From a phage: a stretch of 64,000 bases of DNA. The notes beneath the pieces are model-generated. The model searched no databases and was not told where the DNA came from. It was given only the letters and a program-made list of their open reading frames with translations. A program made the position numbers and the translations under genes. This document shows, piece by piece, positions 55,889-62,979 of this stretch (the first letter of the stretch is position 1; the number at the start of each line of letters is the position of its first letter). The stretch lies in the sequence record PZ452582.1; one strand, 5' to 3'.

Positions 55889-56244
55889 ATGTCTGACATT
55901 CATGTAGCTGGAATTGCTCGAGTAAGTATTCGTTGCCGTCTTAAAACTGTACCCGGGACGGCTTATATTAATTTATCACACGACATAGATTCTCGTGAAA
56001 GCCAGTTAATGGGTGTAATTACGTTTTACGCTGGAGTTGGCGGAAACGAATTTACTGTAGGCGAATTTGTTGGCTGTAAATTAAAAGTTCAGAAGAACGT
56101 GTTAGAACTTTTTAGCGATCTTTATGGTGATAGTGATGAAGTTTTTGATGAAATCGCGCAAGCAGTTAACAGAGGAATGGTAACTTTAGTTAAAATGATT
56201 AAAGATAGCGGATTTGCTTCTGGCCTCTTTCAGTGGGAGGTAAT

Positions 56245-56248
<4 letters not shown>
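55889..56248 (+). CDS. Hypothetical protein
   Basis: 119-aa ORF. Confidence 0.5.
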
Positions 56249-57071
<823 letters not shown>

Positions 57072-57090
57072 AATAACGCGCGGCGGAAAT

Positions 57091-57438
57091 ATGAATTTTA
57101 ATTATTACCCTATTCTATTAGAAAAAGATGAGAAACAGCCAAAGTGGCAGGGTCCTCAGTTTATTAAAGGTGTCTATCAATTAGTAGTTCCTAAAGACAA
57201 GATTTATAGCAGTTGTTTCACTGAATCCGCTTGTAGTATTTTCGGTAATAGTTCTCCGTATTGGAATTTTGACATAAAGCTGGATAGAAATATCGATATT
57301 TGGTTGAAAGCTATGGATATTGGTAATATTACGTTTGATGAGAATAATTATCATATTATTGGTCGCTTTTCCAAACGCGGTAAAGAATTATATTTCACAC
57401 CTGAAATTGAGAGAAAATTTGATGCTAAACCGTATTGA
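57091..57438 (+). CDS. Hypothetical protein inserted between frd and td
   Basis: 115-aa ORF; in T4, frd and td are recalled as directly adjacent. Confidence 0.5.
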   Translation: MNFNYYPILLEKDEKQPKWQGPQFIKGVYQLVVPKDKIYSSCFTESACSIFGNSSPYWNFDIKLDRNIDIWLKAMDIGNITFDENNYHIIGRFSKRGKELYFTPEIERKFDAKPY

Positions 57439-57483
57439 TTATTTAGCTTCATAAAATGTATTATAATTTATATAAGGTACTAA

Positions 57484-58344
57484 ATGAAACAATACCAAGA
57501 TTTAATTAAAGACATTTTTGAAAATGGCTATGAAACCGATGACCGAACGGGCACAGGAACAATTGCTTTGTTCGGTACTAAATTGCGTTGGGATTTAACC
57601 AAAGGTTTTCCTGCAGTAACAACTAAAAAGCTCGCCTGGAACGCATGCATTGCTGAGCTAATATGGTTTTTATCAGGAAGCACAAATGTCAATGATTTGC
57701 GATTAATTCAACATGATTCATTAATTCAAGGCAAAACAGTCTGGGATGAAAATTACGAAAATCAAGCAAAAGATTTAGGATACCATAGCGGTGAACTTGG
57801 TCCAATTTATGGAAAACAGTGGCGTGATTTTGGCGGTGTAGACCAAATTATAGAAGTTATTGATCGTATTAAAAAACTGCCAAATGATAGGCGTCAAATT
57901 GTTTCTGCATGGAATCCAGCTGAACTTAAATATATGGCATTACCGCCTTGTCATATGTTCTATCAATTTAATGTTCGTAATGGATACCTTGACCTTCAGT
58001 GGTATCAACGATCAGTAGATGTTTTCCTCGGTCTTCCATTTAATATTGCATCATATGCTACGTTAGTTCATATTGTAGCTAAGATGTGTAATCTTATTCC
58101 GGGAGATTTGATATTTTCTGGCGGTAATACTCATATCTATATGAATCACGTAGAACAATGTAAAGAAATTTTGCGTCGTGAACCTATGGATTTATGCGAA
58201 TTACAATTAAAATTTCCAGATGAATTTGATGAATGGGACACAGAATCGCAGGTATTTTGGTTGAGTCAATTCGCAAAGCCGCATAATTTTATTCTTAACA
58301 ACTATGAATCACACCCTCCTATTAAAGGAAAGATGGCGGTGTAA
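57484..58344 (+). CDS. td: Thymidylate synthase (Td), intron-less
   Basis: 286 aa in one continuous ORF; sequence recognised; T4 td carries a group I intron that is absent here. Confidence 0.93.
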
Positions 58345-58628: not shown

Positions 58629-58908
58629 ATACAAATCCGACTTTGATGTTAATATTCACCGTGGTACATTTTGGGGAAATTACGTCGGTAAAGATGCTGG
58701 CAGCCGGGAGGCTGCCATTGAATTATTCAAAAAAGATTTTATACGTCGAATTAAATCCGGAGAAATAACTAAAGCACATTTAGAGCCTTTACGTGGAATG
58801 AGGCTAGGATGCACATGTAAACCAAAGCCGTGTCATGGTGATATAATAGCTCATATAGTTAACCGATTGTTTAAAGACGATTTTCAAGTTGAGGACTTAT
58901 GCAATTAA
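58582..58908 (+). CDS. DUF4326-like protein (conserved CxC...PCHGD motif)
   Basis: 108-aa ORF with GTFWGN and [15 protein letters not shown] motifs; start uncertain because it overlaps the previous ORF. Confidence 0.45.
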
Positions 58909-61163
58909 TTAATGTTATCAAAAGTAGTGGTGTTTCTCAGAGCTTTGACCCACAAAAAATTATTAAAGTTTTATCTTGGGCAGCTGAGGGAACATCAGTA
59001 GATCCTTATGAATTATATGAAAATATTAAATCTTATCTCCGTGATGGAATGACAACTGATGATATTCAGACTATTGTCATTAAGGCTGCTGCGAATTCTA
59101 TTTCGGTTGAAGAGCCTGATTATCAATATGTAGCTGCACGCTGTTTAATGTTTGCTCTTCGTAAGCATGTTTACGGGCAGTATGAACCGCGTTCATTTAT
59201 TGACCATATTTCTTATTGCGTAAATGAAGGGAAATATGACCCTGAATTATTGTCAAAATATTCTGCGGAAGAAATTACATTTTTAGAATCAAAAATTAAG
59301 CACGAGCGGGATATGGAATTTACTTATTCCGGAGCGATGCAATTAAAAGAAAAATATCTAGTCAAAGATAAAACCACCGGTCAAATTTATGAAACTCCAC
59401 AGTTTGCATTTATGACTATTGGAATGGCATTGCATCAAGATGAACCTGTTGATAGATTAAAACACGTTATTCGTTTTTATGAAGCAGTATCTACTCGACA
59501 GATTTCACTACCAACTCCTATTATGGCTGGTTGCCGTACTCCAACTCGGCAGTTTAGTTCATGCGTTGTTATTGAAGCAGGTGATTCATTAAAGTCTATC
59601 AATAAGGCTTCCGCTTCAATTGTTGAATATATCTCTAAACGCGCTGGAATTGGTATTAACGTTGGTATGATTCGTGCTGAAGGTTCTAAGATTGGCATGG
59701 GTGAAGTACGCCATACTGGTGTTATTCCTTTTTGGAAACATTTTCAGACTGCTGTTAAATCATGCTCACAGGGTGGAATTCGTGGCGGCGCTGCTACTGC
59801 TTATTATCCTATTTGGCATTTGGAAGTTGAAAATCTTCTTGTTTTGAAAAATAACAAAGGCGTAGAAGAAAACCGCATTCGTCATATGGATTATGGTGTT
59901 CAACTGAATGATTTGATGATGGAACGTTTTGGAAAGAACGATTACATTACTTTGTTCAGTCCCCATGAAATGGGCGGAGAGCTTTATTATTCTTATTTTA
60001 AAGACCAAGACCGTTTCCGTGAATTATACGAAGCAGCAGAAAAAGACCCTAATATTCGTAAAAAGCGTATTAAAGCCCGTGAACTATTTGAATTGCTCAT
60101 GACTGAACGCTCAGGAACAGCAAGAATTTATGTACAGTTCATTGATAATACGAATAACTATACTCCGTTTATTCGTGAAAAGGCACCTATTCGTCAGAGT
60201 AACTTGTGCTGTGAAATTGCTATTCCAACAAATGATGTGAATAGTCCTGATGCTGAAATTGGATTGTGTACTCTCTCTGCATTCGTACTGGATAATTTTG
60301 ACTGGCAAGACCAAGATAAAATTAATGAATTGGCAGAAGTCCAAGTTCGTGCTCTTGATAATCTTTTGGATTACCAAGGATATCCAGTTCCTGAAGCAGA
60401 AAAAGCTAAAAAGCGTCGTAACCTCGGTGTAGGTGTTACTAACTATGCAGCTTGGCTGGCAAGTAACTTTGCTTCTTATGAAGATGCTAACGATTTAACA
60501 CATGAACTATTTGAGAGATTACAATATGGACTCATTAAAGCATCCATTAAGCTCGCCAAAGAAAAAGGACCTTGCGAATATTATTCAGACACTCGTTGGT
60601 CTCGAGGCGAATTACCTATCGACTGGTACAATAAAAAGATTGACCAAATCGCAGCTCCAAAATACGTTTGTGACTGGTCGTCGCTGCGGGAAGACCTTAA
60701 GCTCTTTGGCATCCGTAATAGCACACTATCAGCACTTATGCCATGTGAGTCATCTTCCCAAGTTTCTAACAGTACAAACGGTATCGAGCCTCCACGTGGA
60801 CCAGTCTCTGTTAAAGAATCAAAAGAGGGTTCCTTTAATCAAGTCGTGCCCAATATTGAACATAACATAGACCTATATGATTATACATGGAAATTAGCTA
60901 AGAAAGGTAATAAACCTTATCTTACGCAGGTAGCTATTATGCTGAAATGGGTATGTCAATCAGCTTCAGCGAATACATATTATGACCCGCAGATTTTTCC
61001 AAAAGGAAAGGTTCCAATGTCAATAATGATTGATGACCTTTTGTATTTTTGGTATTTTGGCGGAAAAAATTTCTATTATCATAATACCCGTGATGGTTCT
61101 GGTACTGATGATTATGAAATAGAAACTCCAAAAGCTGAAGATTGCGCAGCGTGTAAATTGTAA
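58899..61163 (+). CDS. nrdA: Aerobic ribonucleotide reductase large subunit NrdA
   Basis: 754 aa, same as T4 NrdA; sequence recognised. Confidence 0.95.
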   Translation: MQLINVIKSSGVSQSFDPQKIIKVLSWAAEGTSVDPYELYENIKSYLRDGMTTDDIQTIVIKAAANSISVEEPDYQYVAARCLMFALRKHVYGQYEPRSFIDHISYCVNEGKYDPELLSKYSAEEITFLESKIKHERDMEFTYSGAMQLKEKYLVKDKTTGQIYETPQFAFMTIGMALHQDEPVDRLKHVIRFYEAVSTRQISLPTPIMAGCRTPTRQFSSCVVIEAGDSLKSINKASASIVEYISKRAGIGINVGMIRAEGSKIGMGEVRHTGVIPFWKHFQTAVKSCSQGGIRGGAATAYYPIWHLEVENLLVLKNNKGVEENRIRHMDYGVQLNDLMMERFGKNDYITLFSPHEMGGELYYSYFKDQDRFRELYEAAEKDPNIRKKRIKARELFELLMTERSGTARIYVQFIDNTNNYTPFIREKAPIRQSNLCCEIAIPTNDVNSPDAEIGLCTLSAFVLDNFDWQDQDKINELAEVQVRALDNLLDYQGYPVPEAEKAKKRRNLGVGVTNYAAWLASNFASYEDANDLTHELFERLQYGLIKASIKLAKEKGPCEYYSDTRWSRGELPIDWYNKKIDQIAAPKYVCDWSSLREDLKLFGIRNSTLSALMPCESSSQVSNSTNGIEPPRGPVSVKESKEGSFNQVVPNIEHNIDLYDYTWKLAKKGNKPYLTQVAIMLKWVCQSASANTYYDPQIFPKGKVPMSIMIDDLLYFWYFGGKNFYYHNTRDGSGTDDYEIETPKAEDCAACKL

Positions 61164-61804
61164 TGAATTATCAAAACGTATATAATAGTTTAATTTCCCG
61201 GGCTCAAACCCGGGAACCTTTATTAGGATATAAAGAGACTCATCATATAATCCCTAGATGTATGGGAGGTTCTGATGATAAAGAAAATTTAGTTGAATTA
61301 ACAGGTAGAGAGCATTTTATAGCTCATTGGCTTTTATGTAAAATATATGACACCCCAGGATTAAAGAAAGCTTTTGGTTTAATGTGCTTGACTGGTAAAA
61401 ATCGCTCATATAAAATTTCTTCTCAACTGTACGAATTAGGTAGACGACGTTTATCTGAAGCTGCTATAGGACGTGAAGTTTCTATAGAAACCAGAGAAAA
61501 GATAAGTAGAGCCCTTAAAGGAAGGAAATTTACCAAAGAGCATTTAGCTCACATGAGAAAACCTAAAACCGAAGAAGCTAAAAAGAATATAGCTGCTGCT
61601 AAAGTCGGCGTGCTTAATCCGATGTATGGTACAATCTCTCCGACAAGAGATGTTCCTCATACTAAAGAAACCCGTGATTTGATTTCTTTGAGAACTAAGC
61701 AAGGTACAGAGTATCCGCCTTGTCCGCATTGTGGCAAGAAAGTTAATAAAGGCAATGCTTTAAGATGGCATTATGATAAATGTAAATTTAAGGATTCTAA
61801 ATGA
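61163..61804 (+). CDS. Free-standing HNH homing endonuclease (MobE-like) between nrdA and nrdB
   Basis: 213 aa; HNH motif HHIIPRCMGG...N...H; three NUMOD-like repeats; TAATG and ATGA overlaps with both neighbours. Confidence 0.75.
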   Translation: MNYQNVYNSLISRAQTREPLLGYKETHHIIPRCMGGSDDKENLVELTGREHFIAHWLLCKIYDTPGLKKAFGLMCLTGKNRSYKISSQLYELGRRRLSEAAIGREVSIETREKISRALKGRKFTKEHLAHMRKPKTEEAKKNIAAAKVGVLNPMYGTISPTRDVPHTKETRDLISLRTKQGTEYPPCPHCGKKVNKGNALRWHYDKCKFKDSK

Positions 61805-62979
61805 GTACAGTTTTTAATACATCCCCTGTTAATATTTTGACTGAGCCGATGTTTTTTGGTTCTGGATTGGGTTTAGCTCGATATGATATTCAACGACATA
61901 GAGTATTTGAAGAACTTATTGAGAAATCTTTATCATTTTTTTGGCGTCCTGAAGAAGTAAACTTGATGATGGATGCTGCGCAATTTAACAAGCTTCCTCA
62001 GTATCAGCAAAATATTTTTACTAACAACTTGAAGTATCAATCACTTTTAGATAGCATTCAGGGTCGCGCGCCATCTGCTGTACTTATGTCATTAATTTCA
62101 GACCCAAGTCTTGATACATGGGTTGCTACATGGACTTTTAGTGAAACTATTCACAGTCGTTCATATACTCATATCATGCGAAATCTTTATACTGATCCAT
62201 CGAAGGTATTTGATGAAATTGTATTAGATGAAGCTATTATGAAACGTGCTGAATCCATTGGACGTTATTATGATGATGTTCTGATTAAAACTCGTTATTG
62301 GGAAAACGCTAAAGCTGATATCGAATACCAAAAAGAAATTAATGCAGACGAAGACGTTATTGAAGATGCTATTGAGCATGAGACATATTGGAAGCGTGAG
62401 CTAATGAAATCTCTTTACCTCTGTTTGCATGTAATCAACGCATTGGAAGCTATTCGTTTTTATGTATCTTTCGCATGTACCTTTAACTTCCATAAGAACA
62501 TGGAAATCATGGAAGGTAATGCCAAGATTATGAAGTTCATTGCACGCGATGAACAGCTTCACCTTAAAGGCACCCAATATATTATTCGTCAACTTCAATC
62601 TGGTACTGATGGCGATCAATGGGTTAAAATTGCTCAAGAGTGTGAACAAGAAGCAGTTGATATTTTCATGGAAGTTAACCGCCAAGAAAAAGATTGGGCA
62701 GTTCATTTATTTAAAGATGGTGATGTTCCTGGATTAAATACAAATAGCATGTGGAGCTTTATTGATTACTTAACTGTATCTCGTATGAAACAGTGCGGTC
62801 TTCCATGCCCAATTACCGATGCTCCGGTTAAACACCCGTATCCTTGGATTCGTGAATATCTTAATTCTGATAATGTTCAATCCGCGCCACAAGAAGTAGA
62901 ACTGTCATCTTATCTTGTAGCACAGATTGATAATGATGTTGATGATAAAGTTATGATGAGTTTTAAAAAATATTTTTAA
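61801..62979 (+). CDS. nrdB: Ribonucleotide reductase small subunit NrdB, intron-less
   Basis: 392 aa in one continuous ORF; di-iron ligands visible. Confidence 0.92.
   Translation: MSTVFNTSPVNILTEPMFFGSGLGLARYDIQRHRVFEELIEKSLSFFWRPEEVNLMMDAAQFNKLPQYQQNIFTNNLKYQSLLDSIQGRAPSAVLMSLISDPSLDTWVATWTFSETIHSRSYTHIMRNLYTDPSKVFDEIVLDEAIMKRAESIGRYYDDVLIKTRYWENAKADIEYQKEINADEDVIEDAIEHETYWKRELMKSLYLCLHVINALEAIRFYVSFACTFNFHKNMEIMEGNAKIMKFIARDEQLHLKGTQYIIRQLQSGTDGDQWVKIAQECEQEAVDIFMEVNRQEKDWAVHLFKDGDVPGLNTNSMWSFIDYLTVSRMKQCGLPCPITDAPVKHPYPWIREYLNSDNVQSAPQEVELSSYLVAQIDNDVDDKVMMSFKKYF

Follow-up and report, generated by a model that had tools for sequence, protein, structure and literature searches.

Does the small open reading frame (ORF) that separates frd from td in the phage sequence record PZ452582.1 represent accessory DNA acquired by this phage, or does it belong to the ordinary gene complement of the T-even phages? 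The stretch analysed, hereafter the window, comprises 64,000 nucleotides (nt), with coordinates given on the + strand, and the ORF in question, here called td.1 and encoding 115 amino acids (aa), was confirmed at 57091..57438 (+). The original prediction had taken frd and td to be directly adjacent in T4 and had regarded the ORF as an insertion of the accessory-cargo type. The adjacency was borne out, the two T4 genes overlapping by 4 nt (ATGA); td.1 is indeed absent from T4, and the junction varies among T-even phages, with three states. As to the insertion itself, the reverse holds: syntenic orthologues are present in Tequatrovirus (T2, T6, RB32, RB51 and RB68, among others) and in at least ten other genera, the T4 arrangement being a rare deleted state (32 records compared with 363). 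In fact, td.1 is a genuine, already catalogued gene, vertically inherited and presumably part of the transcription unit that frd and td form in the T4-like phages of enterobacteria (Straboviridae), and we hold this identity and evolutionary history with high confidence.

The same ORF is named td.1 in the GenBank entries of T2H (AY262132) and T6 (AY262134), and RB32ORF229c in that of RB32, where a note describes it as 'flanked by 9 bp repeat'. The protein of the window, Td.1, is 99% identical to the annotated Td.1 of T2H and T6 and occupies the same frd-td position as these and RB32ORF229c, with essentially no difference, so that the window simply carries another allele. Furthermore, the whole frd-td.1-td stretch is 96-98% identical to that of many Tequatrovirus genomes (e.g. 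JY01, ESH35, wV7, RB51 and RB68). When 50,697 phage records were searched by tblastn, a td.1 homologue was obtained in 582, of which 363 share at least 90% identity (T2, T6, RB32, RB51, RB68 and wV7 among them) and 219 lie below 60%, the latter coming from phages of Klebsiella, Enterobacter, Salmonella, Citrobacter, Serratia, Erwinia, Edwardsiella and Proteus. Orthologues with 25-47% identity occupy the same position in at least ten other Straboviridae genera. At every locus inspected outside Tequatrovirus (Kanagawavirus, Jiaodavirus, Roskildevirus, Gelderlandvirus, Marfavirus, Moonvirus, Winklervirus, Muldoonvirus, a Karam-like Enterobacter phage, Mosigvirus and a metagenomic contig) the gene comes directly after frd and before td. 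These homologues commonly overlap the frd stop codon and, in Jiaodavirus, the td start as well, and the most divergent members of the family, from Providencia/Morganella and Serratia/Cronobacter phages, also adjoin frd. The original prediction had considered that its view would be contradicted by junction orthologues of known function in most T-even phages; orthologues are indeed present in most of them, but none has a known function.

With regard to the extent of the family, the sole profile match was PHROG 1928, annotated as of 'unknown function' (E 3.1e-36, residues 4-111 against positions 2-125 of the 126 in the profile). An exhaustive hidden Markov model (HMM) search of 1.84 billion cluster representatives yielded only 44 clusters, nearly all of them single-domain proteins of 95-148 aa and without fusions, compared with 9 clusters obtained by word-index homologue searches. 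A 2694-aa protein returned by the representative search (E 1.2e-4) aligned over a 40-residue stretch only and is probably spurious. No publication on the td.1 protein, RB32ORF229c or phrog_1928 was found within the searchable literature, and GenBank product names for the orthologues are inconsistent, including 'putative homing endonuclease', 'putative dihydrofolate reductase' and 'putative glucose-1-phosphate adenylyltransferase' (e.g. MZ501046, OK272473, MN580668 and OR271596), all three of which are unsupported.

The T4 junction corresponds exactly to the window sequence minus positions 57074-57489 (416 bp), across two copies of a 9-bp direct repeat, TAAATGAAA. A regular-expression search, together with alignment to the junction of T4, placed the left copy at 57065..57073 (+), across the frd stop codon, and the right copy at 57481..57489 (+), across the td start codon, the two marking the breakpoints of the T4-type deletion. 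When a 40-nt probe with the T4 junction at its centre, one that td.1-bearing genomes cannot match by a 28-nt word, was used, this arrangement was detected in only 32 records, a lower bound in that divergent junctions would escape it; around half of these are T4 strains or fragments, and the others include RB55, RB59, vB_EcoM_112, HY03, SG1, G28, F1, FN, JEP6, FL12, FL18 and G2133. The synonymous divergence (dS) from relatives amounts to 0.10-0.71 for td.1, 0.14-0.42 for frd and 0.20-0.77 for td, and deletion between short direct repeats is well documented in T4. Since outgroup genera carry td.1 at this place, its dS is as deep as that of its neighbours and such repeat deletions are known in T4, a deletion in T4 is favoured over an insertion elsewhere. 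As judged from the sequences compared, td.1 is ancestral at the frd-td position, and T4 and a few relatives have lost it via a 416-bp deletion between the 9-bp repeats. This deletion fused the frd stop with the td start, giving rise to the ATGA overlap, and also removed a td-proximal promoter-like element (57435-57467), so that in T4 td would have to be expressed from promoters further upstream and through coupling to frd. No terminal inverted repeats were found inside the 9-bp direct repeats, and repeats of 8-9 nt are common in the surrounding AT-rich stretch; the pair, holding as it does the frd stop and the td start, is better read as the microhomology of a deletion than as a target-site duplication.

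The ratio of nonsynonymous to synonymous substitution (dN/dS) of td.1 against six relatives was 0.00-0.11, with dS up to 0.7, compared with 0.03-0.27 for frd and approximately 0.08 for td. This ratio is below that of frd and similar to that of td; the protein is constrained and expressed, and td.1 is under strong purifying selection. Within the tequatroviruses, frd is more divergent than td.1 (aa identity 86-99% versus 97-100%; dN/dS up to 0.23 versus no more than 0.11), and there seem to be at least two frd allele classes, one comprising RB32 and SNUABM_01 and the other Lutter and the window. In addition, the Mosigvirus Shigella phage Shf125875 (locus L016, 894-2722) is a mosaic, with Tequatrovirus-like frd (86% aa) and td.1 (93% aa) next to a td that shares 80% aa and 73% nt identity with the window, which places a recombination breakpoint between td.1 and td.

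Around td.1 the genes follow the order customary in T-even phages (gene 32, frd.2, frd.1, ..., frd, td.1, td, nrdA.2, nrdA.1, nrdA, nrdB). Upstream lies frd (56490..57071, +), encoding a dihydrofolate reductase (DHFR) of 193 aa annotated as such in all close relatives, with its stop codon within the left repeat, and downstream lies td (57484..58344, +), encoding a thymidylate synthase (TS) of 286 aa. The ATG start of td.1 is found 19 nt past the frd stop, a spacing from which frd and td.1 may be supposed to be co-transcribed, and its end 45 nt short of the td start. In the 19-nt spacer there is a G/C run, CGCGCGGCGG (57077..57086, +), which had been pointed out as unusually GC-rich for an AT-rich genome. 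The run does exist, but it is not unusual: the window contains 2 runs of at least ten G/C, where dinucleotide shuffles lead one to expect 2.48. Close relatives carry variants of it (CGCGTGGCGG, CGCTGGCGG) in which the 3' part alone, GGCGGAAA(A)TATG, is conserved; the GGCGG of this part (57082-57086, +), 4 nt before the td.1 ATG, is probably a Shine-Dalgarno-like element with a role in ribosome binding. A terminator or RNA hairpin at the run was ruled out, no stable RNA structure being detected there (minimum free energy -6.3 kcal/mol, z = +1.05) and no terminator-like site being returned by the scan. In G+C content td.1 (0.30-0.32) differs little from its flanks (0.34-0.40). A foreign island was also discarded, since G+C and skew run over 55-60 kb without discontinuity and the G/C run occurs at chance frequency, so that neither the run nor the composition gives any sign of a foreign origin.

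The 45-nt spacer between td.1 and td, nearly invariant in sequence among relatives, harbours the promoter-like element for td mentioned above (57435..57467, +), identified by consensus scan. It can be read either as TTGATT-18-TATTAT or as a MotA-box-like TTAGCTTCA (57443-57451) combined with TATAAT (57462-57467), and may function as a promoter; in phage Lutter a 'promoter' feature is annotated at the homologous position. As for td, it is uninterrupted by an intron in the window, as in T2 and T6, and a td intron with an I-TevI-like endonuclease is present in several close td.1-bearing relatives (Lutter, N2, pSe_SNUABM_01, NBG2 and ECML-134). Intron and td.1 are thus inherited independently. The window also has two small ORFs in the frd.1-frd interval, one at 55889-56248 (+), of 119 aa and matching Pfam DUF7247, and the other at 56233-56490 (+), of 85 aa and with no Pfam match. 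Both are missing from T4, where the frd.1-frd gap is 71 nt, while RB32 has the 85-aa ORF only and JY01 has both, which indicates that the region upstream of frd is likewise variable relative to T4.

The three junction states found among T-even phages are td.1, an ORF of 68 aa, or nothing. The 68-aa ORF replaces td.1 in IME537 (locus L012, 3026-3232), pSs-1, the fPS Yersinia phages (e.g. fPS-65), JS98 and others, amounting to some 135 records at 95% identity or more. Its interpretation as a truncated td.1 was ruled out, the two sequences being unrelated. A version with 43% identity is present in Phapecoctavirus phages, which form a different group, and this points to a small gene of greater mobility. 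Moreover, many other genera carry in the frd-td interval a second ORF of about 115-145 aa, which is a td.1 paralogue (hhalign 99.2%, E 1e-19). This paralogue, found in Karam-like phages and in Kanagawa-, Gelderland-, Marfa-, Moon-, Winkler- and Roskildevirus, shares the HGxY and GRFxKxG motifs with td.1 and differs from it in an N-terminal extension (QKNWAL...PTI). All three, td.1, the paralogue and the 68-aa ORF (locus L002, 3173-3379), are found together in Enterobacter phage MY742, and it seems that the interval ancestrally held up to three small genes, followed by lineage-specific losses. In the window td.1 is single-copy, with no further copy or paralogue.

Concerning the protein, the alignments show W19, G52, G91, F93, K95, G97 and P104 to be invariant across at least nine genera and Q16, K18, G27, Y29, G78, N79 and F102 to be nearly so, giving a conserved motif of the form W19 ... 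G-N ... G91-R-F93-x-K95-x-G97 ... P104. At no position of the family alignment is there an Asp, Glu, His, Cys or Ser common to all members, which argues against catalysis, and the isoelectric points of the family range from 6.6 to 9.6. The AlphaFold2 model, built on a 10-sequence alignment, predicts a single beta-rich domain (predicted local distance difference test 81.7, predicted template modelling score 0.78) with seven strands (8-12, 27-34, 42-52, 57-64, 80-82, 86-96 and 99-104) and helices at 35-40 and 68-77. The absence of a recognisable motif noted in the original prediction agrees with the searches: besides PHROG 1928, Pfam gave no match for Td.1 at E<=10 and none for 12 homologues at E<=1, NCBIfam gave no match, and sequence searches against the PDB gave nothing credible. 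Of the PDB profile matches, that to TagH/TarH (E 0.011) aligned with the helical Walker B / D-loop region of this ABC protein and was considered spurious, and those to dynein were dismissed likewise. Homology and structure prediction had been proposed as a check; the former returned the orthologues and PHROG 1928, but the structural search with the model found no significant match. Its sub-threshold hits were mostly oligonucleotide/oligosaccharide-binding (OB) folds, such as SSB, RPA, PriB, Stn1/Ten1, CspA, S1 and Teb1.

Several other explanations of the gene have to be weighed against these data. That td.1 should be a chance open frame in AT-rich intergenic DNA, from which no protein is made, could appeal to the lack of a known domain and to its absence from T4, but has practically no likelihood, considering a dN/dS of 0-0.11 at dS values reaching 0.7, protein sequences that keep invariant residues even at 25% identity, a confident AlphaFold2 model and the PHROG match at E 3e-36. 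Scarcely more credible is mobile cargo, whether as a homing endonuclease gene of the free-standing kind, intact or as a remnant, or as a small transposed cassette with a 9-bp target-site duplication. Like the free-standing T-even homing endonucleases (seg/mob, I-TevI), td.1 lies between conserved genes, shows presence/absence polymorphism and has a GIY-like tripeptide in a beta-strand, its conserved HG(I/V)Y strand superficially resembling the GIY motif of I-TevI; the label of some GenBank records, the flanking 9-bp direct repeats and the 93% identical Mosigvirus copy beside a td only 73% identical in nucleotides can be counted on the same side. Nevertheless, it has neither nuclease nor DNA-binding motifs, is half the usual size of these proteins and has an ancestral syntenic distribution. 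GIY-YIG, HNH, LAGLIDADG and NUMOD were unmatched at the Pfam thresholds given, both in Td.1 and in its 12 homologues, and hhalign gave probabilities of 0.65% against I-TevI and 0.14% against the HNH/NUMOD3 ORF of the window, negatives that together argue strongly against a homing endonuclease identity. Neither the YIG motif nor the catalytic Arg/Glu is conserved, 115 aa is too small, and the mostly beta fold predicted is unlike the alpha/beta fold of GIY-YIG. As for a transposed cassette, its sole ORF has no transposase similarity and terminal inverted repeats are lacking; more than ten genera have the orthologue in synteny, and its dS matches that of the flanks, which means a long residence and not a sporadic distribution, and homologous recombination including frd accounts for the Mosigvirus case. 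A genuine gene of the homing-endonuclease type does exist in the window, at 61163-61804 (+), encoding 213 aa with HNH and NUMOD3 in a mobE/Hef-like position between nrdA (58899-61163) and nrdB (61801-62979); the closest relative, JY01, is without it, its nrdA-nrdB gap being about 50 nt.

Two further proposals concern function. A small OB-fold protein binding single-stranded DNA or RNA, and regulating the frd-td-nrd mRNAs or acting in DNA metabolism, would fit the predicted order of elements (three strands, a helix and two long strands, compatible with an OB barrel), the preponderance of OB folds among nearly all the sub-threshold PDB hits and the conserved aromatic and Lys residues (W19, Y29, F93, K95 and F102). 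In its predicted form, small and barrel-like and with a helix placed after the third long strand and before the fourth, Td.1 may resemble the OB-fold proteins (SSB, RPA, PriB, cold-shock and S1 domains). However, every structural score was insignificant, profile comparison with the OB protein of the phage itself, gp32, gave a probability below 1% (hhalign), and the net charge is near neutral, all of which leaves this specific proposal rather improbable. Somewhat better placed, although still unlikely, is a host-takeover or anti-defence accessory, that is, a small early or middle protein neutralising a host factor or immune system, whose position between frd and td would be accidental. Many recently characterised small T-even ORFs are counter-defence factors, and Td.1 is likewise small, devoid of enzymatic motifs and confined to phages; within Tequatrovirus it is polymorphic (363 records with td.1, 32 with nothing and about 135 with the 68-aa ORF), and it is dispensable in T4, with patchy loss and replacement. 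On the other hand, a dN/dS of 0-0.11 and near-identity over hundreds of isolates do not resemble arms-race diversification, the position is strictly kept in more than ten genera with different hosts, and Td.1 has no similarity to any characterised protein, though no search was aimed at anti-defence proteins.

The explanation preferred here, held tentatively and falling somewhat short of an even chance as a whole, is that Td.1 may be a small beta-rich binding protein, possibly OB-like, rather than an enzyme. That it acts as a non-enzymatic binding protein is the more solid part and seems reasonably probable. It would be made alongside DHFR and TS, its frame overlapping one or both of theirs in many genera, and would probably act stoichiometrically, binding a macromolecular partner via a conserved aromatic and basic surface (W19, Y29, F93 and K95). 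The preferred partner would be a component of the nucleotide-precursor machinery (DHFR, TS, or gp32 / single-stranded nucleic acid), and Td.1 could thereby be a dispensable accessory of thymidylate synthesis. Such a partner is favoured because the association with frd and td holds strictly in all lineages and extends to the paralogue and to the most divergent members of the family. Two facts weigh on the other side, namely that T4-like genomes are collinear anyway and that T4 copes without td.1. A partner within the module of deoxyribonucleoside triphosphate (dNTP) synthesis can only be put forward as a possibility below probability, about equally likely as an anti-defence or host-takeover role. 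More speculative still, and unlikely on present data, is a bolder version in which Td.1 and its tandem paralogue would constitute an unrecognised fold, serving as an accessory subunit or tether of the DHFR-TS pair (for instance linking it to gp32 or the replisome, or tuning translation of the two), or else as a new counter-defence factor.

In itself the feature is ordinary and already known, the presence of td.1 being the majority state among T-even phages. It follows that T4 is unrepresentative as a reference for the frd-td junction, its famous ATGA overlap being, on the reading given above, a derived microhomology deletion. Should Td.1 partner DHFR or TS, or act against a host defence, phage nucleotide metabolism as drawn from T4 would gain a component that it now lacks. 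Furthermore, if the family does prove to be an accessory of unrecognised fold, most T-even phages would use a fuller dNTP-synthetase complex, of which the textbook T4 one is a reduced form.
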